Shown here: one piece after another, positions 6,124-26,530 of the stretch | How positions within the stretch are numbered: the stretch's first letter is position 1 | Layout: each line of letters opens with the position of its first letter | Source of the DNA: an uncultured Clostridia bacterium | GTDB lineage: Bacteria; Bacillota; Clostridia; TANB77; CAG-508 | Direction of reading: 5' to 3' | Assembly: GCA_948739805.1 (NCBI GenBank) | Contig: CAPYID010000004.1 | Coordinates: 1,658-65,657 of the forward strand | Length of the DNA stretch: 64,000 nt | Notes under the pieces: generated by a model | What the model saw: only the letters and a program-made list of their open reading frames with translations | What the model was told of the DNA's origin: nothing | The model's database searches: none | Translations under genes and position numbers: made by a program

Positions 6124-7329
6124 TTATGCCCACCGGAATCCTAAAGAATTTGACATTACAACATTTAATTTTTCTTTTATTGGTTCATTTGGTACTATGT
6201 CTAAATCACATTCTTCATCTTTTTCTTTATAGTTTATTGTTGGTGGTACTATTCCATTTTCTATTGCTTTTACACAGATTACTGCTTCTACTCCTCCTGC
6301 TGCTCCTAATAAATGCCCAATATTTCCTTTTGTTGAACTTACTTTTACTTTTTTACTTGCTTCTCCTAATGCTGTTTTTATTGCTAGTGTTTCTGTAGAA
6401 TCATTTAAATGTGTTGATGTTCCATGTGCATTTATATAATCAATATCTTCTGGTTTGATACCAGCATCTTCTATTGCTCTTATCATTGCTTTTGCTCCAC
6501 CTTCTCCATTTGGGTTAGGTGATGTTATGTGATATGCGTCTGTTGTGCTTCCAAATCCTATTACTTCTGCATATATTTTTGCTCCTCTTTTTTTAGCATG
6601 TTCTAATTCTTCAAGTACTACTATTCCTGCACCTTCTCCCATTACAAATCCGCTTCTTTCTTTGTCGAATGGAATACTTGCTCTGTTTTTATCTTCTGAT
6701 GTACACAATGCTTTCATGTTTTCAAATCCTGCTATTCCAATAGAACAGATTGAGGCTTCTGTTCCTCCTGCTATTATTACATCTTCATATCCCTGTTTTA
6801 TAGTTTTATATGCTTCTCCTATTGCATGTGTTGATGAAGCACATGCAGTTACTATTGAGATGGATTCTCCTTTGAAACCAAATTCTATTGCAATATTTCC
6901 TGCTGGCATGTTTGCTATTGCCATTGGAATGAACATTGGAGATACTCTATTGTTTCCTTTTACATAGTTTGTTTCACATTGTTCTTGTATTGTTTTTAAT
7001 CCTGCTATTCCTGAACTTACAAAAACGCCCACTCTTTCATAATTTGTATTTTCTTCTGTGATACCACTATTTTTTACTGCTTCTCTTGCTGCTATTACTG
7101 CAAATTGTGATGATTTATCAAATCTTTTTGCTTGTTTTTGCTCAAAGTATTCTAAAGGGTCATATTCTTTTATTTCTCCTGCTAGTTTTGTCTTGAAATT
7201 GTCTGTATCAAATAATGTGATTCTGTCAATACCACATTTTTTGTTTTCTATTCCTTTCCATGTTTCATTAACACTTTTTCCTATTGGAGTTATTGCTCCA
7301 AGTCCTGTAATTACAACTCTTTTTTCCAT
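6124..7329 (-). CDS. fabF: 3-oxoacyl-[ACP] synthase II
   Basis: 401 aa KAS II. Active-site Cys context ACASSTHAIGEA and His/His region NAHGTST...GHLLGAAG. Confidence 0.9.
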   Translation of the reverse strand: MEKRVVITGLGAITPIGKSVNETWKGIENKKCGIDRITLFDTDNFKTKLAGEIKEYDPLEYFEQKQAKRFDKSSQFAVIAAREAVKNSGITEENTNYERVGVFVSSGIAGLKTIQEQCETNYVKGNNRVSPMFIPMAIANMPAGNIAIEFGFKGESISIVTACASSTHAIGEAYKTIKQGYEDVIIAGGTEASICSIGIAGFENMKALCTSEDKNRASIPFDKERSGFVMGEGAGIVVLEELEHAKKRGAKIYAEVIGFGSTTDAYHITSPNPNGEGGAKAMIRAIEDAGIKPEDIDYINAHGTSTHLNDSTETLAIKTALGEASKKVKVSSTKGNIGHLLGAAGGVEAVICVKAIENGIVPPTINYKEKDEECDLDIVPNEPIKEKLNVVMSNSLGFRWA

Positions 7330-9647: not shown

Positions 9648-10226
9648 TTAATATTCAATCCTTTCATATAATTCTTTTTCAAATCTGTTACAGAATTCTG
9701 TGATAAATTCTTCTGTATTTATGTCTATGTTAAATTCCCTTTTTATTGATGTTGCTATATTTTCTATGTCTTTACTAAAGTTTTGTTTTTTAGTGTTTAT
9801 CCCAATTCCAACTACTAGATATTTTACATTTTCTGAAATTATTTTTGTTTCTGTTAAAATTCCACCTATCTTTTTGTTTCTATATATTATATCATTTGGT
9901 TCTTTTATTTCTAGTTTTAAGTTATATTGTTCTTCTATAATTTTATTTATTATTTTTGCTATTTCTATTGTTATTCCTTCTAATTTTTTTATATTACAAT
10001 CCATTTGTATGAAGAATGAAAATGCTATATTTCCTTTTTCGTCTGTATGCCATATTCTTCCATGAGTTCCTTTTCCTTTTGTTTGTATTTCTGCTATTAC
10101 TAATGTTCCATTTGTTATAGCTTTATTTTGTATTAATCTCCAGATTTCACTTTGGGTTGAGTCTATTTCTTTATAATAAATTATGTTTCTTCCTAAAAAA
10201 TTAGTTTTTAACTTTTTCAATTGCAT
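9648..10226 (-). CDS. birA: Biotin--protein ligase catalytic domain (group I BirA-like, no HTH domain; short at 192 aa)
   Basis: KGKGTHGRIWHT matches the GRGRxGRxW biotin-binding loop of the BPL family. Its TAA stop abuts the fabD ATG (TAAATG). It overlaps the upstream acyl-CoA synthetase gene by 26 nt. Confidence 0.55.
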   Translation of the reverse strand: MQLKKLKTNFLGRNIIYYKEIDSTQSEIWRLIQNKAITNGTLVIAEIQTKGKGTHGRIWHTDEKGNIAFSFFIQMDCNIKKLEGITIEIAKIINKIIEEQYNLKLEIKEPNDIIYRNKKIGGILTETKIISENVKYLVVGIGINTKKQNFSKDIENIATSIKREFNIDINTEEFITEFCNRFEKELYERIEY

Positions 10227-11919
10227 CTAAATTGTCCTGCCTTTTTATTTTATTTGTTGTTGTTTTTATTAGTGGTTCTTCTGTTAATATTATTCCTTTT
10301 ATTGCTTTGTATTTTGGCATTGTTTTGTTTATTTCCTTTATCTTGCTTGCTAAAACATCATGTATTTCTTCATCTGCTTCTACTTTGTAAACATCTTTTA
10401 TTATTTCTCTATTAAATACTATTTTTACATTTATTTTTATGTCATTTTTATCTTCTGATTGCTTTTTACCGAATACAAATGATTCTTCTACACCTTCTAT
10501 TTTGTTTACTAGGTTTTCCATTTCTTCTGGGAATATATTTTTACCATTTTTTAGCACTATTACACTTTTCTTTCTTCCGCAAATGTATATATACCCTTCT
10601 TCATCTATTCTAGCTAAGTCCCCTGTATAGAACCATTCATCCTTTATAGCTTCATTTGTTGCTTTTTTATTGTTAAAATATCCTAACATAATGCTTGGTC
10701 CTCTTACAATAAGCTCTCCTATACCTTCATCATTTGCATTTACTATTTTTGCTTCAACACTTGGTACTGTTTTTCCTATTGAACCTGTTTTATAATATTT
10801 ATTTGTTCCTATTGCTACAACTGGAGAGGTTTCTGTTAGACCATATCCTTGTACTATATTTATTCCAAGTAGTCTATATTTTTCTTCTATTTTTGGGTCT
10901 AAAGCTGCTGCTCCACTTATGAATAATTTTACTTTTCCACCAATCATATTATGTATTTCTTTAAATACTTCTTTTCTTTGTTCCATAGAAGCATTTTTAT
11001 ATTTTTCTTCGTTCTCTAATATTTCTTCTAGCTTCCCTTGTCTTTCTATTTGCTTTTTAATATTCATAAAGATTCTTTCATATATTGCTGGAACACATGC
11101 CATTACTGTTACATTATATTCTTTTAAGTTTTCTACTACATGCCTTAATCCATCACAAAATACTGTTTGAGCTCCTTTATATAGCGAAAATAAAAATCCT
11201 ACTGTACATTCAAATACATGATGTATAGGTAATATTGAAAGTAGGACGTCTTCTGATGTAACATCTATAATGCTTCCAATATCCATTAAGTTTGAACATA
11301 TATTTTTATGAGATAATGCTACTACTTTTGATTTTGATGTTGTTCCAGATGTAAATAGCATTATACTCATTTCTTCTGCATTTATCTCCGCATTAATGAA
11401 TTCTCTGTTTCCTTTGTCTATAAGGTTTTTGCCTGTTTCTATTAGCTCTTTTTGTGAGTAAATTCCCTCTGAGTGTGAATTTAAATCCATTGCTATTAGA
11501 TGTTTAAGTTTACTTTTATGACTATATCTTATCCTTTTTATGCTTTCTTCATATTTTTTTGAGTAAAAAATAGCTTCTATTTCTGACCTTTCTATTAATT
11601 CTTTTAATTCATTTTCTGGCAATGATTTATCTAATGGCACAACTATCCCAGTTCCACAAACTATTGATAAATATGCAATTTCCCATTCATACCTGTTTTC
11701 CCCAATTACGGCTATTCTTTTTCCTTTTAATCCCAAGTTTATTAGAGAGGTTCCTAGAGCATCTATCATTTCTCTTATTTCATTGTGTGTAAAAATTTCA
11801 TATTTTCCATTTTCTATTTTTATTTTATAGGCTGGCTTTTCTCCATATAATTTTTTAGTTTTATTTAACATATCTTTTAAATCTGTTATTTCTAAATGGT
11901 CGTATATTCGCTTATCCAT
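10201..11919 (-). CDS. Long-chain acyl-CoA synthetase (AMP-forming)
   Basis: 572 aa. AMP-binding motif LFTSGTTSKSKVVALSH, YGLTETSP, and a C-terminal ANL domain. Confidence 0.8.
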   Translation of the reverse strand: MDKRIYDHLEITDLKDMLNKTKKLYGEKPAYKIKIENGKYEIFTHNEIREMIDALGTSLINLGLKGKRIAVIGENRYEWEIAYLSIVCGTGIVVPLDKSLPENELKELIERSEIEAIFYSKKYEESIKRIRYSHKSKLKHLIAMDLNSHSEGIYSQKELIETGKNLIDKGNREFINAEINAEEMSIMLFTSGTTSKSKVVALSHKNICSNLMDIGSIIDVTSEDVLLSILPIHHVFECTVGFLFSLYKGAQTVFCDGLRHVVENLKEYNVTVMACVPAIYERIFMNIKKQIERQGKLEEILENEEKYKNASMEQRKEVFKEIHNMIGGKVKLFISGAAALDPKIEEKYRLLGINIVQGYGLTETSPVVAIGTNKYYKTGSIGKTVPSVEAKIVNANDEGIGELIVRGPSIMLGYFNNKKATNEAIKDEWFYTGDLARIDEEGYIYICGRKKSVIVLKNGKNIFPEEMENLVNKIEGVEESFVFGKKQSEDKNDIKINVKIVFNREIIKDVYKVEADEEIHDVLASKIKEINKTMPKYKAIKGIILTEEPLIKTTTNKIKRQDNLDAIEKVKN

Positions 11920-11985
11920 TTTTTATATATTTCCCTCCGTTGTATTAAAGTTATTTTTCATTTATTGAGTTTAAGTTTTCATATA

Positions 11986-13719
11986 TTAAGTCGGAAAAGA
12001 ATTATTAATGATTCTTTTCATCTCTTCTTGACGTTTAATTTTTTTAGTTGTAGTCTTAATCAATTCCTCACTACTTAAAATCATATTTTGAATATGTTTA
12101 TATCTAGGAAAAGTAGTATTTAATTTTTTTATTTCATCCCAAATAATTTTAAATAATTCATTTTCGGATTTATCTTTATATTTTTCTTGTGCAACTTCTT
12201 TACTATATACAATTTTTACTGATAATTTTACATCATTTTTATCATTTTCATCTGGTAAACCAAAAACAAAACATTCTTCTACTAATTCTATTCTATTTAT
12301 TAAAGTTTCTAGTTCTTCTGGAAAAACTTTTTTTCCATTTTTTAGAACTATCATATTTTTATTTCTACCTGTTATAATCAAATATCCTTTTTCATCTATA
12401 TAGCCTAAATCTCCTGTATAGAACCACCCATCTTTTAATACACTTTCTGTCTCTTCTGGCATTTCATAATATCCTAACATTACATTTGGTCCTTTTACTC
12501 TTATTTCTCCTATACCGTTTTCATCTTTGTTTGCAATTTCCATAGTTACATTAATCATTGGTAATCCTACTGAACCATTTTTCATGTGTTTATTATCTTC
12601 TGCTGCTATTACTGGTGATGTCTCTGTTAGACCATAGCCTTGTACTGTTTTTATTCCTAAGTTATTAAATCCTTTTGATATTTCTGGGTCTGCTGGTGCA
12701 CCTCCAGATATAACAAATCTTAATTCTCCTCCTAATGCTTCTATTACTGGTTTGAATAATTTTCTTCTTATGTCAATATGGAATTTTAGTAAAAAATTAC
12801 TTATTTTCATTGCGTTTTTTATTAATTTTGTTTTTCCTTGTTTTTCTATTTCCTTCATTATTGTTTTATATATTGCTTCTACTAATAAAGGTACTCCAAT
12901 GAATAAAGTTACTTTATATTCATTTAAATTTTGCTTAATATATCTTAACCCATCTGGAAATACAGTTTTCACTCCTGTTGCTAACATCATTAACATTCCT
13001 GTTGAACCAAATATATGATGGAATGGCAAAAATGCAATATTTGTATCTGTTTCCCTAATATCTTCTACACATTGCATTGCATATATATTTGAAGCTACAT
13101 TTCTTTGGGATATCATTACTGCTTTTGATTTTGATGTTGTTCCTGATGTAAATAATAATATATTCATTGCATTTTCATCTATTTGCACATTTATATAGTC
13201 TTTTTTTCCTTCCTGTAATAATTTATCTCCATCATTTATAAGTTTTTTTACAGATTCGAAGCCTTCTATTTCTCCCATACATATGTATTCTTTTAAGCAT
13301 GTTTTATTTTTTTCTTTTATTTCTAGCATTTTCTCTGTTAGTTTTTCATCAAAAATTATACATTCTGCTTTACTTCTAATTAATGAGTTTTCAAGTTCAT
13401 CATATTGTAAATCTTTGTCTAATGGTACAGATACTATTCCCCCAAGTAAATTTGACAAATGTGCTAATGCCCATTCATATCTGTTTTTTCCAATAACAGC
13501 TATCCTTTTTCCTTTAAACCCTTTTTCATAAAGCATTGTTCCTAATTTATTTATGTCTTCTAATAATCCTTTATATGAAATGTTTTCATAAGTTACTTCT
13601 TTGTTTTCTTGATGTTTTATTACAAATGCTGTTTTTTCATTGTATTTCTTAGCTGATTCATAAATTATCTCTTTTACACTTTTAAATTCTTTGGCTTCAA
13701 ATAATTTTCTATGTTCCAT
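11986..13719 (-). CDS. Long-chain acyl-CoA synthetase (AMP-forming), tandem paralogue of the preceding gene
   Basis: 577 aa. LFTSGTTSKSKAVMISQ and YGLTETSP motifs. Same architecture as the neighbouring gene. Confidence 0.8.
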   Translation of the reverse strand: MEHRKLFEAKEFKSVKEIIYESAKKYNEKTAFVIKHQENKEVTYENISYKGLLEDINKLGTMLYEKGFKGKRIAVIGKNRYEWALAHLSNLLGGIVSVPLDKDLQYDELENSLIRSKAECIIFDEKLTEKMLEIKEKNKTCLKEYICMGEIEGFESVKKLINDGDKLLQEGKKDYINVQIDENAMNILLFTSGTTSKSKAVMISQRNVASNIYAMQCVEDIRETDTNIAFLPFHHIFGSTGMLMMLATGVKTVFPDGLRYIKQNLNEYKVTLFIGVPLLVEAIYKTIMKEIEKQGKTKLIKNAMKISNFLLKFHIDIRRKLFKPVIEALGGELRFVISGGAPADPEISKGFNNLGIKTVQGYGLTETSPVIAAEDNKHMKNGSVGLPMINVTMEIANKDENGIGEIRVKGPNVMLGYYEMPEETESVLKDGWFYTGDLGYIDEKGYLIITGRNKNMIVLKNGKKVFPEELETLINRIELVEECFVFGLPDENDKNDVKLSVKIVYSKEVAQEKYKDKSENELFKIIWDEIKKLNTTFPRYKHIQNMILSSEELIKTTTKKIKRQEEMKRIINNSFPT

Positions 13720-13798
13720 ATTAACCCCAAACTTTCTATTTATTCTATTTATATCATAAAAAGATAAAATTTGAATTAGACTGGGTAGTCAGTCTAAT

Positions 13799-15826
13799 CT
13801 ATCTTTTTACTAATATTTTATCCGAATAACTTTTTTCTTTTACTATTCCACAAATTAGGTCTGCTGTTTTCTCTACTCCTAGAGTTTCACTATTTATTGA
13901 TATATCATAGTTTTCGTTATTACTCCATTCTTTTTCTGTATAGTGTTTATAATGGTTTGCTCTTAGTTTATTTACTTTTTGTATTTCTTTTTTTGCATTT
14001 TCAATTCCATAAATCTCTTTAACTCTTTTTATTTTATCTTTCATATCACTATATATAAATACTTTTATTACATCTTCTCTATCTTTTAATATGAAATCTG
14101 CACATCTACCTATAATTACACAAGATTCCTTTTCTGCAATTTGTTTTATTACTTCTGATTCTTTTATAAATAGTTCGTCTGAATAGTTTAATCCAAAGTA
14201 ATATCCATTGTTTAAATTTTCTAGTATTTCTCTTTTCTGTTCATGATTTTCTATATATTCTTCTGATAATCCAGTTTCTTCTGCTACTTTTTTTATGAAT
14301 TCTTTATCATATAATTTTATTCCTAGTTTGTCTGCAATTAATCTTCCTATATATCTTCCACCAGAGCCATATTCTCTTGATATTGTTATTACAATATGTT
14401 CTTCTAATTTTTTATCTGTACTTGTATCATCTTCTAGTGCATTACTTTTTGATGTTTCTTTACTTAAATTTTTTACCTCTAAAGCTATCAATACTACTGC
14501 AAGCACAAATGCTATTCCATCTGCTACAGGTCCTGAATATAGAACTCCCATAATTCCAAACATACTACTTAATATTATCATTGATGGTATTAAAAATGCA
14601 ATTTGTCTTGATAATGATAAAATTACACTTTTTACACTTTTTCCTATTGCTTGGAAGAATATTCCTGCTGGTATTTGTATTCCATTACAAATACATAGTA
14701 GTAAATATGTTCTAAATGATAAACATGCAAAGTCCATGTATAGTTCATCACCACTACCAAATATGGCAATTAATTTATCTGGTATTGCTTGGAACAGTAT
14801 AAATGCAATAGTACTTATTATTACACTTAATCCTAATACTAATTTTAATGTTTGTTTTACTCTATCAAATTTTCTTGCTCCATAATTGTATCCAAATATT
14901 GGTTGTGAACCTGCTGCAATTCCAATTATTATACTATTTAATATTTGACTTATTTTCATAACAATGCCTAAAACTGTTATTGGTATTTCTGAACCATATT
15001 TTGATTGTGCTCCATATTTTGCAAGTAAATTGTTTTCAAATGCCATAACAACTACAAAACTCATTTGTGTTACAAAACTACTTATTCCTAATGTTGATAT
15101 TCTTTTTAATACATTAAATTTAACTTTGAATGTTTCTTTTGTTAATGTTACTGATTTGAATTTTTTTATGTACATAATATTTAGTGCAAATGTTATGAAT
15201 TGACTTAATGCTGTTGCTATTGCTGCCCCTTCTATCCCCATTTTAAATGCAAATATGAAAATTGGGTCTAGTATAATGTTTATAACTGCACCTAGTACCA
15301 TAGATGTCATTGCATATTTAGGGTCTCCATCTGCTCTTATTATTGAGTTTAGTGTAGTTCCTATCATCATAAATGGTAACCCTATTGCTATTATTCTTCC
15401 ATATCCAATAGCATAGTCTCTTAATGCATCTGTACATCCAAACATATTTAATAATGGTGATAAAAATATTAATGTAAATAAGCAAAATATAATTGCTATT
15501 ATTATAGATGATGTAATTGCATTTCCTACACCTTTTCCTGCTTCGTCTTTTTTCTTTTCTCCCAATTTTAGACTTAAATAAGCTGATGCACCATCTCCAA
15601 TCATTAGAGAAAATGCTAAACATATCATTGTTAATGGGAATACTACATTTGTTGCTCCATTTGCTAAATAATCTACTCCCCAACCAATAAATATTTGGTC
15701 TACAATATTGTATAATGCATTTACTAATAGTGATATTATACAAGGGATTGAGAATTTTATAATTAATTTTTGTATTTTTTCACTTCCTAATATATTTTCT
15801 TCTTTTTCCAATTTTGTTTCCTCCAT
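13799..15826 (-). CDS. MATE-family efflux transporter fused to a C-terminal cytidylate-kinase-like (P-loop) domain
   Basis: 675 aa. About 450 aa of polytopic membrane protein with MATE-like repeats, then a soluble domain starting HIVITISREYGSGGRYIGRLIADKLG (a cytidylate_kin2-like P-loop). Confidence 0.7.
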   Translation of the reverse strand: MEETKLEKEENILGSEKIQKLIIKFSIPCIISLLVNALYNIVDQIFIGWGVDYLANGATNVVFPLTMICLAFSLMIGDGASAYLSLKLGEKKKDEAGKGVGNAITSSIIIAIIFCLFTLIFLSPLLNMFGCTDALRDYAIGYGRIIAIGLPFMMIGTTLNSIIRADGDPKYAMTSMVLGAVINIILDPIFIFAFKMGIEGAAIATALSQFITFALNIMYIKKFKSVTLTKETFKVKFNVLKRISTLGISSFVTQMSFVVVMAFENNLLAKYGAQSKYGSEIPITVLGIVMKISQILNSIIIGIAAGSQPIFGYNYGARKFDRVKQTLKLVLGLSVIISTIAFILFQAIPDKLIAIFGSGDELYMDFACLSFRTYLLLCICNGIQIPAGIFFQAIGKSVKSVILSLSRQIAFLIPSMIILSSMFGIMGVLYSGPVADGIAFVLAVVLIALEVKNLSKETSKSNALEDDTSTDKKLEEHIVITISREYGSGGRYIGRLIADKLGIKLYDKEFIKKVAEETGLSEEYIENHEQKREILENLNNGYYFGLNYSDELFIKESEVIKQIAEKESCVIIGRCADFILKDREDVIKVFIYSDMKDKIKRVKEIYGIENAKKEIQKVNKLRANHYKHYTEKEWSNNENYDISINSETLGVEKTADLICGIVKEKSYSDKILVKR

Positions 15827-15833
15827 TTTTTTA

Positions 15834-16967
15834 TTATTGTTGTTTTACTTTTCTTCCTAATCTGTCTCCTAGTCTACATAATAGTTCATTTGTAATTGTT
15901 TCTGCTTTGTTTGCAATTGTTTCTGCTGATATTTCTTTTTGCTCTCCTATTAGAGTAACTATATCCCCTTGATGAATTCCCTCTATTTTTGATACGTCTA
16001 TTATTAATTGATCCATACATATTCTTCCTATTATTTCTGCATATTCCCCATTTACCATTACTTTTACATTTTTGTTGCTTAAATTTCTAGGGAAGCCATC
16101 TGCATATCCTATTGAAACTGTAGCAATTTTTTTGTTAGTATTTGCTATAAATGTTCTTCCATAACTTACACTTTCTTGTTCTTCAATTTCTTTAATACTT
16201 GTTATTCTTGCTTTTAATGTTAGAACTGGTTTTAAGTTAAGTTTTATCTTTGGTTCATCTTCATTATAAATTCCATACATGATAATTCCTGGGCGCACAA
16301 AATCACAGTTTACATTCGTATAGTTTAATATTCCATAACTTGCTTGTATATGTATCTTTCCTGTATCATATCCTAAACTTTTTATTTTATCTATACATTT
16401 AAAGAAATTATTAATTTGCATATTTGTGAATTCTATATCATCTTTTTTTGTGCTATCTGATACACATAGATGACTAAATGTTCCTAATATTTCAGTGTTT
16501 TTCATTTTATATATATTTATTAGATTTTCTATATTTTTATAACTTTCTCCTATTCGGTTCATTCCTGTGTTTATTTTTATATGTACTTTTAATTTTTTTT
16601 CTAATTTCATTTGCTCTATCTTTTTTGCGTATTCATAGTCTACTATTGTTTGGATTAAGTCATATTTAATTATATTTTCTATTTCGTTTATGTCTGTATA
16701 ACCTAATATCAATATATTCCCTGTTATGTTATTTTTTCTTAATTTAATTCCTTCTGATAGTGTTGCCACTGCGAAATCCTCTATTCCTATTTCGTCTAGC
16801 TTTTTGGCTACTTCTATCATTCCATGCCCATATGCATTTGCTTTTACTATTGCCATTATTTTACATGTTTCTGGTATTACGCTTTTTATTTCTTTTATAT
16901 TGTTTTCTAAGTTTTCTAAATTTATTTCTATCCATGCTCTATCTCGCTTTGCAAGTTCTTCTTCCAT
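15834..16967 (-). CDS. alr: Alanine racemase
   Basis: 377 aa. PLP-lysine motif AIVKANAYGHG. No membrane domain, so it is not VanT-like. Confidence 0.85.
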   Translation of the reverse strand: MEEELAKRDRAWIEINLENLENNIKEIKSVIPETCKIMAIVKANAYGHGMIEVAKKLDEIGIEDFAVATLSEGIKLRKNNITGNILILGYTDINEIENIIKYDLIQTIVDYEYAKKIEQMKLEKKLKVHIKINTGMNRIGESYKNIENLINIYKMKNTEILGTFSHLCVSDSTKKDDIEFTNMQINNFFKCIDKIKSLGYDTGKIHIQASYGILNYTNVNCDFVRPGIIMYGIYNEDEPKIKLNLKPVLTLKARITSIKEIEEQESVSYGRTFIANTNKKIATVSIGYADGFPRNLSNKNVKVMVNGEYAEIIGRICMDQLIIDVSKIEGIHQGDIVTLIGEQKEISAETIANKAETITNELLCRLGDRLGRKVKQQ

Positions 16968-17039
16968 TTTTCTTACCTTCTTTTATTTTATATCTCTCTT
17001 GTCAAAGCACAGTGCACTGTGCCAATACATCGCTAATTT

Positions 17040-18086
17040 CTAGCTTCTAATTTCTAATTCAATTAATTTATCCAATAATTGTTCAAAGTTTATTCCTACT
17101 TGTTTCATCATACTAGGATATCTACTATGTGATGTAAATCCTGGTATAGTATTGATTTCGTTGAAATATATTTCTCCTTTTGGTGTTAAAAACATGTCTA
17201 CTCTTGCAAAGTCTTTACATTTTAATATTTTATATATTTTTTTTGCAGTTTCTTTTGCTTCGTCTGAAATACTTTTTTCTATTCTCGCTGGTACATGTAT
17301 TTTTGATGTTTTTAGTGTGTATTTTTCTGTGTAGTTGAAAAATCCTTTGCTTAATTCTATTTCGTCTATTTCCCCTACTGTTAATTCTTCATTTCCTAAT
17401 ATTGCACATCCTATTTCTATTCCTTCTATGTTCTCTTCTATTATTATTTCTGTGTCATATTTTAGTGCTTCTTTTATTGCTCCTTCTATTTCATTTTCGC
17501 TTTCTACTTTTGTTATTCCAAATGAAGAACCTGCTCTCATTGGTTTTACAAATAGCGGATATTTCAATTGTTTTAGCTTCTCTTCTATTTCTTTTTGCTT
17601 TGCTTTATCGTTTATAACTATACTTTTCGCTACTTTTATTCCATAACTTTCTACTAGTTTATGTGATAAGTGTTTGTCCATGCATAGACTAGATGAAAGT
17701 ATATCACATCCTATTAGTGGTATTCCTGATAGTGCAATAAGTCCTTGTACTGTTCCGTCTTCTCCATTTGAACCATGTAGCACTGGGAATATTGCGTCTA
17801 ATTTTATTAATCTATTATTGTTTTCTGTTTCTATTATTCCTTTATCTTCTGGATTTGTTGAGATAATAGCTTTTGTACATTTCCCTTCTTTTTCCCATAC
17901 ATTATTTTTTATTTTTTCTATTTCTCCCTCATATTTATACCAGTTTCCTTGTTTTGTTATTCCTATTAATGCTATATCGTATTTTTCTTTGTTTATGTTT
18001 GTTATTACACTGTATGCTGATTCTAATGATACATCATATTCTGGGCTTTTTCCTCCAAATATTATTCCTATTTTCTTTTTTTCCAT
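17040..18086 (-). CDS. ddl: D-alanine--D-alanine ligase
   Basis: 348 aa ATP-grasp protein. The N-terminus IGIIFGGKSPEYDVSLESA is typical of Ddl. Confidence 0.85.
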   Translation of the reverse strand: MEKKKIGIIFGGKSPEYDVSLESAYSVITNINKEKYDIALIGITKQGNWYKYEGEIEKIKNNVWEKEGKCTKAIISTNPEDKGIIETENNNRLIKLDAIFPVLHGSNGEDGTVQGLIALSGIPLIGCDILSSSLCMDKHLSHKLVESYGIKVAKSIVINDKAKQKEIEEKLKQLKYPLFVKPMRAGSSFGITKVESENEIEGAIKEALKYDTEIIIEENIEGIEIGCAILGNEELTVGEIDEIELSKGFFNYTEKYTLKTSKIHVPARIEKSISDEAKETAKKIYKILKCKDFARVDMFLTPKGEIYFNEINTIPGFTSHSRYPSMMKQVGINFEQLLDKLIELEIRS

Positions 18087-18181
18087 TTTCTGTTCATTCC
18101 TTTCTACGTTTTTGGTCTTATTATATAATTCTTGCTTATTGTAAGTATGTTACAAACGGTATACCTACAATAGTGTTACTA

Positions 18182-19411
18182 CTAATTCAAATACATAATG
18201 TCTACATCTACATTTGTATTTATTCCGTCTATTCTGGCAGTATCACACATTTGCCATATTGAATATTTTCCTTGGTAGTTAGTTTGGCTTGTGTAATGTG
18301 CTAACCATGTGTCATGTTTTGTTGGGTTCCATATTTTTTCTAAGTAGTTTTTACTGCTGTATAATAGTCCTTTGTATCCATTTTCTACTAGTGTGTCTAA
18401 AAATACATTTGCTGCTTTGTTTATTGTATAAAAACTCATTCCTGCTTTATTAAATGAGTTCCAACTTTCCCAGTCAAAGGCTATTGGTAATTCTATTTCA
18501 TATTGTTTTATTTGCTCTTTTACCCATTCTGCTTGTTCTTTTGCTTGTTTTATGTTTTTTGCATATGAGTAATAATATATCCCTACTGGTAATTCTACTC
18601 TTTTTGCTCCTTCTATATTTGCTATAAAATATGGATCTATTACGTTTTCTCCATCATAGTCTGTTTGATAGCCCATCCTTATTATTACAAATTCTGCTCC
18701 TGCATTTTTTACTTTTTCCCAGTCTATTTCTCCTTGCCATTTTGATACATCTATTCCTATTTTTGTTTTTTCGTTCTTGTAATTGTCTAAAATGTCGTTA
18801 AAGTAAATAGGCTCTTTTGGTGTTGGTGGTTGCGTTGGAGTTGTAGTTTGTTCTTCTATTACATGTAGTGTAAAGTCTTTTTTGGCTTGATTTCCACTTG
18901 AATCTGTTACAACATATGTTAATTTATAGTCTCCTACAGTGTTAAAGTCATATTCTCCTACAATTTCTCTTTTAGGATTATCGTCTATATCGTCTCCACT
19001 TATTAATACTTCTGTTAAGTTTTTATTAGAGCCTTTTTTTACTGTATATGATGCTCCACTAAATATTTTTGGTTCTGTTACATCTGTTGTTTTTATATTA
19101 AATGTGGCTGTTCTCTTTTTATTTTTTATGTTTATAAAATCAAATGATACTTGTATATCTCCTAATTTTTCTGTGTCTATTTTATAATCATTAATTAGTT
19201 CACCATTAAGATTTTCTAGGAAGTCTGATACTTTTGCTTCCTTTCCAAATTCTATTGTTAGGTTTTCTTTTAATGTTACTGCTTCTGCATCTATTCTTTT
19301 GTTTTCTTGTTCTTCATTATACATCCATATACAGAACCCTGTTATGCCAATTATGACTATTATTATTAAAATTATTATAATAGTTGATACTTTTTTCATA
19401 CTTAATTTCAT
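18182..19411 (-). CDS. Membrane-anchored GH25 muramidase (lysozyme) with an Ig-like domain
   Basis: 409 aa. N-terminal TM helix, a Big-like beta domain, and a C-terminal GH25 domain (GIDVSKWQGEIDWEKVKNAGAEFVIIRMGY). Confidence 0.75.
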   Translation of the reverse strand: MKLSMKKVSTIIIILIIIVIIGITGFCIWMYNEEQENKRIDAEAVTLKENLTIEFGKEAKVSDFLENLNGELINDYKIDTEKLGDIQVSFDFINIKNKKRTATFNIKTTDVTEPKIFSGASYTVKKGSNKNLTEVLISGDDIDDNPKREIVGEYDFNTVGDYKLTYVVTDSSGNQAKKDFTLHVIEEQTTTPTQPPTPKEPIYFNDILDNYKNEKTKIGIDVSKWQGEIDWEKVKNAGAEFVIIRMGYQTDYDGENVIDPYFIANIEGAKRVELPVGIYYYSYAKNIKQAKEQAEWVKEQIKQYEIELPIAFDWESWNSFNKAGMSFYTINKAANVFLDTLVENGYKGLLYSSKNYLEKIWNPTKHDTWLAHYTSQTNYQGKYSIWQMCDTARIDGINTNVDVDIMYLN

Positions 19412-19507
19412 TCCTTTCTAAGTCACAAACCTAAGTTGAAAAAGGAATTATTTGCCAATTATTTTTTCATCCTTCTTTAACTTTTTTACTGACTCTATAT
19501 AATTATA

Positions 19508-20473
19508 TTATTGTAATGCATTCTTTAATACCTCTAAGTTTCTATTCATTAATGTTACATATGTTTCTCCATTTTTATAGTCCTCATTCGATATTGAGTG
19601 TAATGTTTGCATTTGCATTGCTTTTGCTCCTGTTTCTTTTGAAATTATGTTTGCAACTTTTGAGTTTCCATTTTCTATGTATAATACTACTGGTATGTTT
19701 TCTTCTTTTATTAGATTAATTAAATATGTTAAAGTTTTTGTACTAGGTTCGGTTTCTGTACTACAGCCATTAAATGCTCCACTGGCTTTTAGTCCAAATT
19801 CTTCTAAAAAGTATCTTATTGGCATTCTGTCTCCAAATACTAGCCTTTTCCTTTTAGCATTTTCTACTATCTCCCATATATCTTCATCTAGTTTTTCTAT
19901 TTGCTTTTTGTAATTATTAACATTTTTTCTAAATATATCTTTTTCTTCATTATCAATTTCTTCTAATGCTAATTCTAAACTCTCTAACATTTTTAGGGCA
20001 TTTTTAGGCGATGTCCAAACATGTTCATCCCATGCTAATTCTTGATGTTCCTCATGTTCTTCTGCCCCATCTATATGTTCTTCTTTATATAATTCTACTG
20101 TATCCATTAGTTTTATTAATTTTGTATTTGATAAGTCCATTGTAGGTATAACTTGTTCTGTCCAGTTCTCCATTTCTCCACCATTATATACAAATAAGGC
20201 TGATTGTTGTATTGCTATTATTTGACTGGCTGTTGGTTCAAAGTTATGTGCGTCTACTCCTGAGTCTAATAAATATGTTATTTCTATATTGTTACTGCCT
20301 TTTGTTACTGCTTTTACAAAGTCATATCCCACAAAGGAAGTACAAACAACACTTATCTTATCTGTTGATTTCGTCTTAGAATTATTAGGTTTTATAAGAG
20401 CATAGATAAAAATAGCTACAATTATTACTAGAATAATTATACTTATTATTTTATTTAATTTTATTACTTTCAT
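19508..20473 (-). CDS. Orphan metal (zinc-type) ABC-transporter substrate-binding protein, ZnuA/AdcA family
   Basis: 321 aa cluster-9 SBP fold with an acidic/His-rich loop DGAEEHEEHQE. No permease or ATPase genes are adjacent. Confidence 0.7.
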   Translation of the reverse strand: MKVIKLNKIISIIILVIIVAIFIYALIKPNNSKTKSTDKISVVCTSFVGYDFVKAVTKGSNNIEITYLLDSGVDAHNFEPTASQIIAIQQSALFVYNGGEMENWTEQVIPTMDLSNTKLIKLMDTVELYKEEHIDGAEEHEEHQELAWDEHVWTSPKNALKMLESLELALEEIDNEEKDIFRKNVNNYKKQIEKLDEDIWEIVENAKRKRLVFGDRMPIRYFLEEFGLKASGAFNGCSTETEPSTKTLTYLINLIKEENIPVVLYIENGNSKVANIISKETGAKAMQMQTLHSISNEDYKNGETYVTLMNRNLEVLKNALQ

Positions 20474-20797: not shown

Positions 20798-20833
20798 ATA
20801 AAATAAAGAGGCGATGCCTCTTTATTTTATTCT
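20798..20833 (-). terminator. Bidirectional rho-independent terminator
   Basis: Stem aaagaggc-gat-gcctcttt, flanked by an A-tract on one side and a T-tract on the other. Confidence 0.5.
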
Positions 20834-21468
20834 TCTGGTGTTCCTTCATCAATAATTCCTTTTATTGTTTCATATTGCTCTTTTACATTTTCAACACAGT
20901 GTATGTATATTCCATTTTTTCCTTGCATGTTGTTGTGTCTTCTAGTATTAGGATAACCTCCACTAGATGCATTTGTAAATATTTTTATTGTTCCTATATT
21001 AAATAATCTTTCAAATATGTTTTGATTCATTGTTACTTCTCTAACATATTTATATTTTAGTTCTTTTTCTTCTTTGTTTAAAAAACCATCTTTGTATTCT
21101 ACTTTTGTAGCATAAAAGTTATATTCTAAGTCGTCATATTGCATTTTTTCAAATGCTAGTTTTATGATGATATATAATGCCATAGCACCGATTGTTATTA
21201 AAAGTGTTATAGGATATATAGCCCATAATTCATATAAATCTGTAACCCAAAAGCATATTAATATCATATATAATATTGCTCTTCCAATAAAAGTTAACAT
21301 TTTGTATGGTATGTTAAATTTGGGTTTTACTTGAAATTTTATTTTGTTGTCCTCTTCAATTTTTTCTTTTGTTTCCTGTGCTCCTGCTCTTTCTGTTCCA
21401 CATTTAGGACAAAATTTAGCTGTATCACTTATTTCTGCTCCACAATTTTTACAAAACATAATTGCCAC
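20827..21468 (-). CDS. Zinc-ribbon / two-TM / bacterial PH (bPH_2, YdbT-like) domain membrane protein
   Basis: 213 aa. N-terminal CKNCGx11CPKCG, two hydrophobic helices, and a C-terminal YdbS/YdbT-like PH domain. Confidence 0.6.
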   Translation of the reverse strand: MAIMFCKNCGAEISDTAKFCPKCGTERAGAQETKEKIEEDNKIKFQVKPKFNIPYKMLTFIGRAILYMILICFWVTDLYELWAIYPITLLITIGAMALYIIIKLAFEKMQYDDLEYNFYATKVEYKDGFLNKEEKELKYKYVREVTMNQNIFERLFNIGTIKIFTNASSGGYPNTRRHNNMQGKNGIYIHCVENVKEQYETIKGIIDEGTPEE

Positions 21469-21473
21469 TCCTT

Positions 21474-22100
21474 TTATACATTAGTTATTTCTTTTACTTT
21501 TTTATAGATTTCTTGTACATTTTCTATATTTTTTATAAAAATGCCATTTCCAAAACCTGTTTCCGCATTAGTAAATAAGACTATATTTCCAATATTAAAG
21601 TATCTTTGGATAAATGTTTGACGCATTGTTATTTCTCTTATATATTTGTATTTTACCTCTTTTTCTGAAACATTTAAAAAGCTGTCTTTGTAAATTACTT
21701 TCGTTTTATAAAAATCATATGTATAATTTTTGTATTGCTTTTTATTAACTAATACTTGTATTCCCCAAATACTTCCAAATATTATAATTGTTATAAATGT
21801 AATTACCATACCTACTATAAAGTCTACACTTCCGAATATAAGTAATGTGATTGCAATTATAAAAATGTAAATTAATAATGATGGTAATGCCATGTATCCA
21901 AATTTGTAAGTTGGTTTTACTTGTAATTGTATTTCATTATCTACTATTTTTTTTGCTTCTTCTTTTGGTGTTTCTTTTGATTCTGAAATACGTGTACCAC
22001 AATTAGTACAGAATTCTGCTGTGTCTAGTAACTTTGTACCACATTTTTCGCAAAACATTTTATTTTCCTCCCCTTTATTTATATGTATTTTTGTATGCAT
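21474..22100 (-). CDS. Zinc-ribbon / two-TM / bPH-domain membrane protein, tandem paralogue
   Basis: 208 aa. CEKCGx11CTNCG and the same architecture as the neighbouring gene. Confidence 0.6.
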   Translation of the reverse strand: MHTKIHINKGEENKMFCEKCGTKLLDTAEFCTNCGTRISESKETPKEEAKKIVDNEIQLQVKPTYKFGYMALPSLLIYIFIIAITLLIFGSVDFIVGMVITFITIIIFGSIWGIQVLVNKKQYKNYTYDFYKTKVIYKDSFLNVSEKEVKYKYIREITMRQTFIQRYFNIGNIVLFTNAETGFGNGIFIKNIENVQEIYKKVKEITNV

Positions 22101-24553: not shown

Positions 24554-26530
24554 TTATCTTCCTCCTGTATCTTTTGCTGTTGCTGGTATTGAACTTTTAT
24601 GTCGGTATTCCTGTTTTTCTTCTATGTCTTCCCATGGTCTGTGCCCATTTTGCTTTTCTAAGTCTTTTTGATAACATTCAAACCTTTGCTCAAATTCCTT
24701 TTCTGGTAATCCTACAAATTTATTTGTTTCTTTGTCTGCAAAGTAAAACTTCTTGCCCACCTCTGGTAAATCTGCATATACATATAATACAGGTTCTTTA
24801 TTTTCATCATCTCTTTCATACACTCTATTTACTACACATCTATTGAAGTTTATATTACTTAATATTCCTCGTAATATACTTGCTGTTTCATTTTGGCATA
24901 TAGCAAATCCTGGGTAATATCCAGCAAGCAACATTAATTGTATTTCTACTGTTTTCTCTGCTGGAAATCCAGAAGCATCTATCATATTAGATATACTCAT
25001 AAACTTTTGTATTGGAAAATTCCCCTTTTCATCTGTCGCTCCTATACTTTTAAATATTTCTCTTACATTTCTTTTATCTAAACTTAAAGTAACACCATTT
25101 TCATTAATCTTGTGTGCTTCTGTATCTATCCCTTTTGATTCTATTTTATCATATTTTCTTATTTCTTCATAACTGTTGCAAAAGTTTTCAGGCAATCCAC
25201 CATATCTGTTAATTGATAAATTCCAAGTAGAATCTAAATATGTGTCTCCTTTAACTACTTCTCCATCTTTTTGAGGAAGTTCTATATTCTTAAGTTTTAA
25301 AAAAACATGCGTTCTATTTTTGATAACTTCAGCCTCAATTCCAATTTTGCTTAGAATGTATTTTTCAAGTTCTGATATTCCCCAACATACTCCTGTTTTT
25401 TTATTTGCTACTTTCCACATATTTTGCACTTCTTTGCTATTATATATTTCTGTATCCAGATATGGACAATAAGTTATGTTTTTACCCAATACATAATCTA
25501 CATATGCTACTCCTTGGATATTTGTCCACTCTGGATTTATTCCTTGCAATACCCAGTCAATCCACTTTTCAGCCTCTTTATATTCTTCTAGTGTAACAGT
25601 TGAAGCTCCTATATCATCTGATATTCCTATATTTGGACAAATTTCTGCTAATTCTTGAATTTTAACTCTTTCTTCATCTTTTAATTCTATTGGATTTACA
25701 TAAATTAGTTCGTCTAAGTCTTTATATATTTCTAAATCTTTGCTAAAATCAACTACAATTTTTCCATATTTAGCTCCTATCTCATGACTTAGTTTTAGTT
25801 TATATTCTGTTTCTTCTTGCGGAAAAATAGATTTGTCAAGTTTTTCTTTCTGTTTATCATCTAAAATAGTTAATATTCTCTTCTTTTCTTTATCAGTTAT
25901 GCCTCTTTTTACAAGCTCTGATACAATTTCTAATTGCACATCTTCGTTTGCTTCCATTATAATATCATAAATTGTTATACCTTTTTCATATAAAATTTTT
26001 CTGTATTCTATAAAAGTGTTTACTAATAAATCTACCTTTATACTACTAAGAATCTCTTTTATTGCTACTTTACTAAATTTACATTTTTCTTTAATTATAA
26101 TTGATATTATAGTATCTCCAGGACATGATTCTAAAATAATTCTTGTCATTTTTCTACTAATCTTATCTAAATATAAATTAATCATTTCTAATTTTATTTC
26201 ACTAGATTTTAGGCTATCAATAATTAATGTTATTACAATGCTATCTAAGTTTAATTCTTTTTCTATAAATTCTCTATCTAATAATAACTTTTGTTTATCT
26301 TCATCTCTTAATCTTATAAACAAACCTGCTATTTTCTCTCTGTTTTGTAGAATATTGCTTTTTTTAAGAAAGTCTATATTTCTTAAAATTTTCATCTCAT
26401 CTTCATATTTTAAAGATATAAGTGCTACATAAATTTCCTCAATTTCAAGTTTTGATATAAAGTCTGGATCTTTAAGCATAATTTCTAATTTTGTAGCACT
26501 ATCTGATTTCCAAAAATATTGTATATCCAT
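24554..26530 (-). CDS. Large cytoplasmic hypothetical protein with a C-terminal transglutaminase-like (Cys-His-Asp) core
   Basis: 658 aa with no signal peptide. The region GVCWGISE...RTHVFLKL...GDTYLDSTWN fits a transglutaminase-like cysteine-protease core. Good RBS GAGAGGA. Confidence 0.5.
   Translation of the reverse strand: MDIQYFWKSDSATKLEIMLKDPDFISKLEIEEIYVALISLKYEDEMKILRNIDFLKKSNILQNREKIAGLFIRLRDEDKQKLLLDREFIEKELNLDSIVITLIIDSLKSSEIKLEMINLYLDKISRKMTRIILESCPGDTIISIIIKEKCKFSKVAIKEILSSIKVDLLVNTFIEYRKILYEKGITIYDIIMEANEDVQLEIVSELVKRGITDKEKKRILTILDDKQKEKLDKSIFPQEETEYKLKLSHEIGAKYGKIVVDFSKDLEIYKDLDELIYVNPIELKDEERVKIQELAEICPNIGISDDIGASTVTLEEYKEAEKWIDWVLQGINPEWTNIQGVAYVDYVLGKNITYCPYLDTEIYNSKEVQNMWKVANKKTGVCWGISELEKYILSKIGIEAEVIKNRTHVFLKLKNIELPQKDGEVVKGDTYLDSTWNLSINRYGGLPENFCNSYEEIRKYDKIESKGIDTEAHKINENGVTLSLDKRNVREIFKSIGATDEKGNFPIQKFMSISNMIDASGFPAEKTVEIQLMLLAGYYPGFAICQNETASILRGILSNINFNRCVVNRVYERDDENKEPVLYVYADLPEVGKKFYFADKETNKFVGLPEKEFEQRFECYQKDLEKQNGHRPWEDIEEKQEYRHKSSIPATAKDTGGR

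Follow-up and report, generated by a model that had tools for sequence, protein, structure and literature searches.

What does a cytidylate-kinase-like domain do at the end of a drug-efflux pump? The question is raised by a gene at 13799..15826 of a 64,000-nucleotide stretch of contig CAPYID010000004.1 (the window), from an uncultured Clostridia bacterium, which encodes a MATE-family transporter joined by a short linker to a soluble domain of the Pfam family PF13189 (Cytidylate_kin2). Work on MATE pumps has dealt with them as bare antiporters of 12 helices, regulated through transcription, and a conserved cytoplasmic domain tethered to such a pump, as in many abundant gut Clostridia, would suggest that a ligand controls efflux directly. 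We find that this fusion is widespread in gut Clostridia, where it forms two deep clades. As to its role, we judge the chances about even that PF13189 is in effect a pseudokinase, an accessory or regulatory module that binds a ligand and modulates the MATE exporter. Within its large family the window gene is unremarkable, and the finding matters for this family-level hypothesis more than for the locus itself; all of the evidence is computational.

A transporter and a kinase-like domain in one reading frame

The gene is an intact open reading frame (ORF) of 675 amino acids (aa) with an ATG start and zero internal stops, the stop codon being counted in its coordinates. Pfam recognizes both halves: MatE (PF01554) matches in two stretches (E=2.7e-36, 125 bits against a cut-off of 24.9), and Cytidylate_kin2 matches aa 479-647 (E=1e-52, 179 bits against a gathering score of 28). 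An earlier note, made from the sequence alone, had described a continuous 675-aa ORF that joins a complete MATE transporter to a cytidylate-kinase-like domain, and this description holds. The parts of the gene, with the evidence for each, are as follows; TM stands for transmembrane, MAG for metagenome-assembled genome, NMP for nucleoside monophosphate, AF2 for AlphaFold2 and pLDDT for its per-residue confidence score.

13799..15826, minus strand: complete ORF of 675 aa, MATE plus linker plus PF13189 (ORF list, Pfam, NCBIfam; 100% identical in the MAG L028)
14471..15781, minus strand: MATE (DinF/MepA-type) membrane domain, aa 16-452, ~12 TM segments (NCBIfam, hydropathy, AF2, match to 4lz6)
15698..15700, minus strand: codon of D43 in TM1, counterpart of D40 of the Bacillus halodurans transporter DinF-BH (alignment)
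14393..14470, minus strand: linker, aa 453-478, charged, variable and probably disordered (pLDDT, clade identities)
13847..14392, minus strand: predicted cytoplasmic PF13189 (Cytidylate_kin2) domain with an NMP-kinase-type fold, aa 479-660
14345..14377, minus strand: degenerate P-loop REYGSGGRYIG, aa 484-494 (profile match to 1kag, hhalign to Escherichia coli Cmk, conservation)
14096..14122, minus strand: CVIIGRCAD motif, aa 569-577 (conservation, Cmk alignment)
13925..13963, minus strand: RANHYKHYTEKEW, aa 622-634, at the position of the LID-like helix (conservation, Cmk alignment)

The transporter half has every mark of the MATE family and its DinF subfamily that can be read from sequence, namely scores above threshold, a topology of ~12 TM segments and an Asp in TM1. 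It passes the NCBIfam MATE subfamily model TIGR00797 (matE) with 182.4 bits against a cut-off of 147.4, and the alignment to the NCBIfam model PRK09575 spans aa 16-452. As the models for specific pumps (VmrA-like PRK09575, MepA and others) score under their cut-offs, no specific named pump is assigned. Hydropathy analysis places ~12 hydrophobic segments at aa 20-450 and none past aa 465. In an AF2 model built from a 42-sequence alignment (mean pLDDT 82.4, predicted TM-score [pTM] 0.63), the membrane part is helical, with pLDDT mostly 83-95.

The closest solved relative is DinF-BH (BH2163; Protein Data Bank [PDB] entries 4lz6 and 5c6o), a proton-coupled multidrug exporter of the DinF subfamily, which aligns over aa 10-448 (E=4.4e-75 for 4lz6) and so covers the full MATE length. 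The two proteins have in common the ~12 TM segments, the TM1 Asp (D43, equivalent to D40) and the cytoplasmic-loop motif QPIxGYNYGA. D43 is invariant in the 42 sequences, and the same column holds Asp in 4lz6 and 5c6o and Asn in the variant entry 5c6n. Residue 40 of DinF-BH is the protonation (proton-coupling) site. Given the match to DinF-BH and the alignment of D43 with D40, the transporter half looks functional, and cation-coupled export is predicted. The difference lies past the membrane domain: DinF-BH stops soon after TM12, whereas the window protein adds the ~26-aa linker and a soluble domain of ~200 aa. Indeed, all 15 matched solved MATE sequences are 440-499 aa long, too short for an extra domain.

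Both MATE termini are cytoplasmic in solved structures. Under an N-in/C-in topology, the loops of the window protein hold 30 Lys and Arg residues inside and 6 outside. By this positive-inside count the C-terminal domain is therefore predicted to be cytoplasmic, the placement that the earlier note had proposed to check.

The two halves are joined by a stretch of a different character. The ~26-aa linker has pLDDT below 50 at aa 457-471, and it contains no Met (aa 453-478), which rules out an internal ATG start within it. Within the clade of the window protein, identity is 81% in the MATE part, 79% in the kinase-like part and 49% in the linker, while between the two clades the corresponding values are 45%, 36% and 12%. 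As identity is high in both domains and low between them, both are under purifying selection, of comparable strength, and the linker drifts as a free tether.

The PF13189 fold and its degenerate P-loop

The soluble domain shares the fold of two structural-genomics entries, 3hdt ("putative kinase" of Clostridium symbiosum) and 3fdi (Eubacterium ventriosum), and has the NMP-kinase core fold. Those PF13189 proteins are soluble, ~200 aa long, without an assigned function and untethered, whereas the window's domain is tethered to a transporter. From the cytidylate kinases themselves it is more distant. Identity to Cmk of Staphylococcus aureus (2h92) and Thermus thermophilus (3akc) is 11-19%, the Walker-A motif GxxxxGK[ST] is replaced by RExGSGG[R/K/H], and the model for archaeal (d)CMP kinases, TIGR02173, gives 33.5 bits against a cut-off of 102.1.

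To read the P-loop, its register has to be fixed. When a profile of the domain was searched against PDB sequences, shikimate kinase 1kag matched weakly (E=0.23), with GAGKSTIG opposite GSGG[K/R]xIG and the register anchored by the following IG..LA..L...FYD match; only shikimate kinase appeared in this search, and genuine CMP kinases were not detected. An hhalign comparison with E. coli Cmk, also weak (E=0.11), gave the same register, ITIDGPSGAGKGT opposite ITISREYGSGGRY; this result is corroborative only.

In this register the position of the Walker-A Lys is occupied by G490, which is invariant in the 42 fused sequences and kept in 115 of the 120 diverse representatives. The following Ser/Thr positions are R491 and Y492 in the window protein, and R/K/H and Y/Q/E across the family, and the invariant R484 and E485 stand in for the first G-x of Walker A. 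Position 491 is Arg in most members and His, Lys or Leu in others (His or Leu in ~13% of free-standing representatives), and thus is not a strict substitute for the Lys. The GSGGRYIG motif picked out in the earlier note is present, at aa 487-494, and the kinase-type fold stands; the P-loop, however, is not a canonical Walker A.

C569, G573, R574 and D577 of the CVIIGRCAD motif are near-invariant, with R574 aligned to the NMP-site arginine of the Cmk "GR" motif, as are R622 in the LID-like helix and W634. The resulting signature, R-[EQ]-x-G-S-G-G ... C-x3-G-R-x2-D ... R-x3-Y ... W, is fully present in the window protein and near-invariant in the 120 representatives. Because the domain falls short of the TIGR02173 cut-off and lacks the Walker-A consensus, the protein is not a cytidylate kinase, and a role in phosphorylation or in sensing "nucleotide status" cannot be assumed from its name. 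On these scores and alignments, "cytidylate kinase-like" should be taken as the name of a fold and not of a demonstrated activity.

Distribution of the fusion and of PF13189

The window protein was searched against 5.8 billion proteins, and all 8000 scored candidates had E≤1e-10. Both Pfam domains are found in each of the 120 clusters listed (75-93% identity, 660-698 aa). A scan with one genome per species gave 43 loci, every one from MAGs of uncultured gut Clostridia or Bacillota. Among these, an independent MAG of an uncultured Clostridiaceae (L028) carries a 100% identical copy, and other MAGs have copies of 90-97% identity. Three loci (L039-L041) encode proteins only 40% identical to that of the window. 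With the L040 protein as query, another 120 of 120 listed clusters are fused (659-689 aa), and named sources of these relatives are Roseburia, Lachnospiraceae, Oscillospiraceae and Anaerotignum. The architecture, which the earlier note had called uncommon, is thus anything but rare: all 240 listed clusters are fused, and they span two clades with 40% identity between them.

The fusion is already in public databases, where the proteins, if named at all, are called "MATE family efflux transporter" with no mention of the second domain; WP_290717219.1 is the RefSeq record of the Anaerotignum protein. What is undescribed is the accessory domain on a MATE pump, as the literature searched held no paper on the MATE-PF13189 architecture and no function for PF13189/Cytidylate_kin2 or for 3hdt and 3fdi. 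Within the window there is no paralogue of either domain elsewhere. At three further loci (L035, L036 and L037, locus ~6800-6950), the fusion protein aligns by tblastn with a break at ~aa 265-330 and with match lengths that are not multiples of three, probably reflecting assembly frameshifts or pseudogenes.

To place the soluble domain among its relatives, an exhaustive phmmer search with aa 471-675 was run against 1.84 billion cluster representatives (50% clustering). At E≤1e-3 it returned 10,081 proteins, of which 3,561 reach E≤1e-10. Of the best 150 representatives, 105 are free-standing proteins of 190-220 aa, in agreement with the earlier note's statement that the domain normally stands alone. 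The family is thus large, and it is also gut-enriched (PMC13601570).

A Pfam scan of the longer representatives gives three fusion groups, MatE, MFS_1 and DUF6198/YitT-like, with the membrane part always N-terminal. The MatE group comprises P0429 (653 aa, full length) and the fragments P0364, P0368, P0381 and P0399, to which P0361, P0363, P0369, P0375 and P0419 (661-671 aa) are added by length and by 10-14 predicted N-terminal TM segments rather than by Pfam. MFS_1 fusions are P0417 (607 aa) and P0469; the MFS fusion cluster has 35 members, on contigs of up to 600 kb, and bears the JGI name "MFS family arabinose efflux permease/cytidylate kinase". The DUF6198/YitT-like group, a recurrent ~435-aa architecture, consists of seven full-length proteins of 431-442 aa (P0385, P0395, P0398, P0427, P0439, P0463 and P0484) and fragments; the DUF6198 fusion cluster counts 6 members. 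Neither of the last two architectures is described in the literature searched. Nearly all other N-terminally extended representatives have TM-like segments, several of them ending in the MATE TM12 motif YAGPxAD, and no soluble-enzyme partner of PF13189 was found among the extended proteins examined.

The earlier note had asked whether orthologues are fused or split. The fused form prevails throughout the listed clusters, but split, operon-coupled versions exist as well. In L041, a 487-aa MATE ORF and a 200-aa PF13189 ORF overlap by 32 nucleotides (nt), and the cluster of the PF13189 protein counts 98 members; immediately upstream of this pair, on the same strand, lies another MATE gene, which is unfused (186-1574, 462 aa). 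In L044, a 475-aa MATE, 44% identical to the MATE half of the window protein, shares an ATGA overlap with a 204-aa PF13189 gene that is preceded by an AGGAGG ribosome-binding site and whose product is found on 24 contigs. As judged from this arrangement, the L044 PF13189 gene is predicted to be translationally coupled to the orthologous MATE. A crude neighbour-joining tree resolves three groups, the two fused clades and the free-standing members, and places the MATE-adjacent split forms among the last.

Some free-standing members have nucleotide-handling neighbours. In L055 (795-4568) the PF13189 gene lies beside a nucleoside hydrolase and a 5'-nucleotidase, and in L046-L051 a NUDIX hydrolase lies 62 nt upstream of it (L046, 3556-4609); these neighbours are a weak hint at a nucleotide-related ligand. 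In Fusobacterium nucleatum, the free-standing member RS03620 is two genes from the RND efflux permease RS03610, and both are in the same list of induced genes (PMC9848294). In a 2026 gut-microbiome atlas that uses metatranscriptomes, the cytidylate-kinase-like family ranks with the most abundant and most strongly expressed of the gut-enriched families and is assigned to nucleotide metabolism (PMC13601570), an assignment that rests purely on the family name.

Candidate roles and the gene neighbourhood

How might such a domain act on a pump? The protein is a proton-coupled DinF-subfamily MATE whose cytoplasmic C-terminus is joined after TM12, through the ~26-residue flexible linker, to PF13189. 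The domain keeps an anion-binding glycine loop together with R574 at the NMP site and R622 in the LID-like helix, and has lost the Walker-A Lys and Ser/Thr that are normally needed for phosphotransfer. In the mechanism that we favour, it would bind a phosphorylated small molecule in the cytoplasm, most plausibly a nucleotide, and the bound module would touch the cytoplasmic face of the transporter, so that export is switched or tuned. The analysis itself shows the architecture, topology and fold, the degenerate P-loop, the conservation of both halves and the recurrence of the module on MATE, MFS and DUF6198/YitT-like proteins and in MATE operons; that a ligand binds, what it is and how it affects transport are what we infer.

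Three observations lead to this reading. The same module occurs on three unrelated membrane transport classes and as a translationally coupled subunit, as is usual for portable regulatory domains; the residues for phosphotransfer are lost while the glycine loop and the substrate-site arginines are kept; and both halves are conserved while the linker drifts. In line with it, the transporter half looks functional, the domain is placed in the cytoplasm, and RS03620 of F. nucleatum lies near an RND efflux permease. Of the earlier note's suggestion that the kinase-like module regulates the pump or couples it to nucleotide status, the regulatory part survives as the best reading, but a kinase or nucleotide-status role gains no support from the domain's name.

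There is precedent for this arrangement in other transporters. Sensor domains are found C-terminal to transporters and channels in several systems, such as STAS on SulP/SLC26, CBS on CLC, MgtE and OpuA, and RCK/TrkA-C on K+ transporters; for MATE transporters we know of no such accessory domain. Like those systems, the present one has a membrane domain followed by a soluble domain that is also found free-standing and that recurs on unrelated families (here MATE, MFS and DUF6198/YitT-like). Unlike them, PF13189 has a P-loop NMP-kinase-like fold, and its regulatory role is putative. The missing catalytic Lys, together with the fact that the only identifiable fusion partners in the extended proteins examined are membrane transport proteins, makes a testable alternative to the nucleotide-metabolism annotation. 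Should the regulatory alternative be wrong, what remains is a common multi-domain MATE protein whose annotation is adequate though incomplete.

The idea can be extended to the family at large, in which case PF13189 would be a widespread, hitherto unrecognised sensor, a pseudokinase descended from NMP kinases, that binds a nucleotide or nucleotide-derived signal and directly gates at least three classes of secondary transporters (MATE, MFS and YitT-like) of gut anaerobes, whether as a fused domain or as a subunit encoded in the operon. MATE efflux pumps would then have their first described domain for post-translational regulation. We offer this extension tentatively and would sooner expect it to fail than to hold.

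Several points weigh against a regulatory module. The literature searched held no ligand, binding or transport results for any PF13189 member, and the AF2 model has no confident interface between the domains (linker pLDDT <50, pTM 0.63). The P-loop register is set by alignments that are each weak (E=0.23 and 0.11), yet mutually consistent. Six of eight sampled free-standing PF13189 genes are without a transporter neighbour, so the family is not exclusively linked to transporters. Lastly, a non-canonical active site could just as well be built from the strictly conserved R484, R574, R622 and C569.

This last point leads to the main rival, in which PF13189 is an active, non-canonical small-molecule kinase that phosphorylates the pump substrate or a toxic compound in the cytoplasm, so that one protein would modify and expel it. 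Drug-modifying kinases do have the same fold. We nevertheless consider such an activity unlikely, since both the Walker-A Lys and the Mg-binding Ser/Thr are missing and the candidate replacement at position 491 is His or Leu in ~13% of free-standing representatives. Moreover, the domain sits on three transporter families that probably have different substrates, for which a common signal is easier to conceive than a common substrate.

A regulatory ligand might also be dispensed with altogether, PF13189 being a structural module for dimerisation, folding, stability or localisation without a ligand-dependent role. Both crystal entries, 3hdt and 3fdi, contain two chains, and the flexible tether with no predicted fixed interface in AF2 would suit such a part. 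The strongest conservation, however, is not spread over the surface and clusters instead in the P-loop, the GR motif and the LID-like helix, the classical elements of a ligand site, and most family members are soluble, free-standing and without a transporter neighbour. A purely structural role is accordingly quite improbable in our estimate.

The neighbourhood of the window gene suggests a third alternative. Genes from ~10.2 to 19.4 kb are all on the minus strand, and those around the fusion gene are as follows.

17040..18086, minus strand: VanG-type D-Ala-D-Ser ligase (NF000091, 554.9 bits against a cut-off of 495)
15834..16967, minus strand: VanT-G-type serine/alanine racemase, catalytic part only (NF033131, 535.4 bits against a cut-off of 460)
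13774..13799, minus strand: terminator-like hairpin directly past the fusion stop (consensus match only; the sole such site in 9800-19800)
10201-13719, minus strand: two AMP-binding acyl-CoA-ligase-like paralogues in tandem (572 and 577 aa), immediately downstream of the fusion gene

The stop of the racemase lies 7 nt before the MATE start, and the racemase and the fusion gene are probably co-transcribed. The number of terminator-like sites in 9800-19800 is no higher than in shuffled sequence, and a promoter scan of this AT-rich DNA gave fewer matches than in shuffles.

From this arrangement it could be argued that the fusion protein serves an adjacent VanG/VanT-like D-Ala-D-Ser pathway, moving serine, D-serine or a peptidoglycan precursor in place of the missing membrane domain of VanT. 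In its favour, the start codon follows so closely on the stop of a catalytic-only VanT-G-type racemase, itself preceded by a VanG-type ligase, both of them above curated NCBIfam cut-offs, and no terminator-like site intervenes before the end of the fusion gene. The association does not persist among relatives, however. The Alr/Ddl/acyl-CoA-ligase context is held only at ≥83% identity, about 30 orthologues at 67-76% have other neighbours, and ORF clustering across the 42 loci gives no conserved operon partner, the best neighbour cluster being present in 11 loci only. We therefore treat the adjacency as lineage-specific and uninformative on function. To our knowledge, MATE proteins export organic cations and drugs and are not known as serine carriers, which also counts against this pathway role, and we regard it as very unlikely.

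The van-like pair itself varies among close relatives. In L006, whose fusion gene is 83% identical, a GH25 gene lies directly upstream and both racemase and ligase are absent; in L002 the racemase is kept, and its flank gave no match to the ligase or GH25. The pattern suggests an indel of two genes. A complete van resistance cluster upstream of the pair in the window was considered and rejected, as only genes for a GH25 muramidase, ZnuA, two Zn-ribbon/bPH proteins and GroEL were found there. No vanR/S, vanXY, vanY or vanW lies around the pair, and the surroundings are of a housekeeping kind. The orphan VanG/VanT-G pair (15834-18086) could be the normal cell-wall pathway of the lineage or a remnant van cassette. 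If D-Ala-D-Ser termini are the lineage's normal cell wall, an intrinsically low affinity for vancomycin would be implied.

That the fusion is an artefact of a frameshift, a missed stop or a chimeric assembly, for which one might cite the split versions (L041, L044) and the broken alignments of L035-L037, is rejected as wholly improbable, since the frame is uninterrupted in the window, in the identical independent MAG L028 and in all 240 listed clusters (ENA, NCBI, JGI, Logan), 40+ independent assemblies speak against a stop or frameshift at the junction, and the linker offers no ATG start.

Of the remaining genes nearby, the acyl-CoA-ligase-like pair has long-chain fatty-acid-CoA ligase as its best models, with all scores below cut-off, and is followed downstream by BPL/LplA-, FabD-, FabG- and FabF-like genes. 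One acyl-CoA-ligase-like gene still adjoins the fusion gene in some relatives of 75% identity (L013, L017). Farther upstream, a 658-aa ORF at 24554-26530 (minus strand) has no Pfam match at E≤1e-5, and the tandem ~210-aa proteins at 20827-22100 (minus strand) each combine an N-terminal zinc-ribbon with a bacterial PH (bPH_2) domain.

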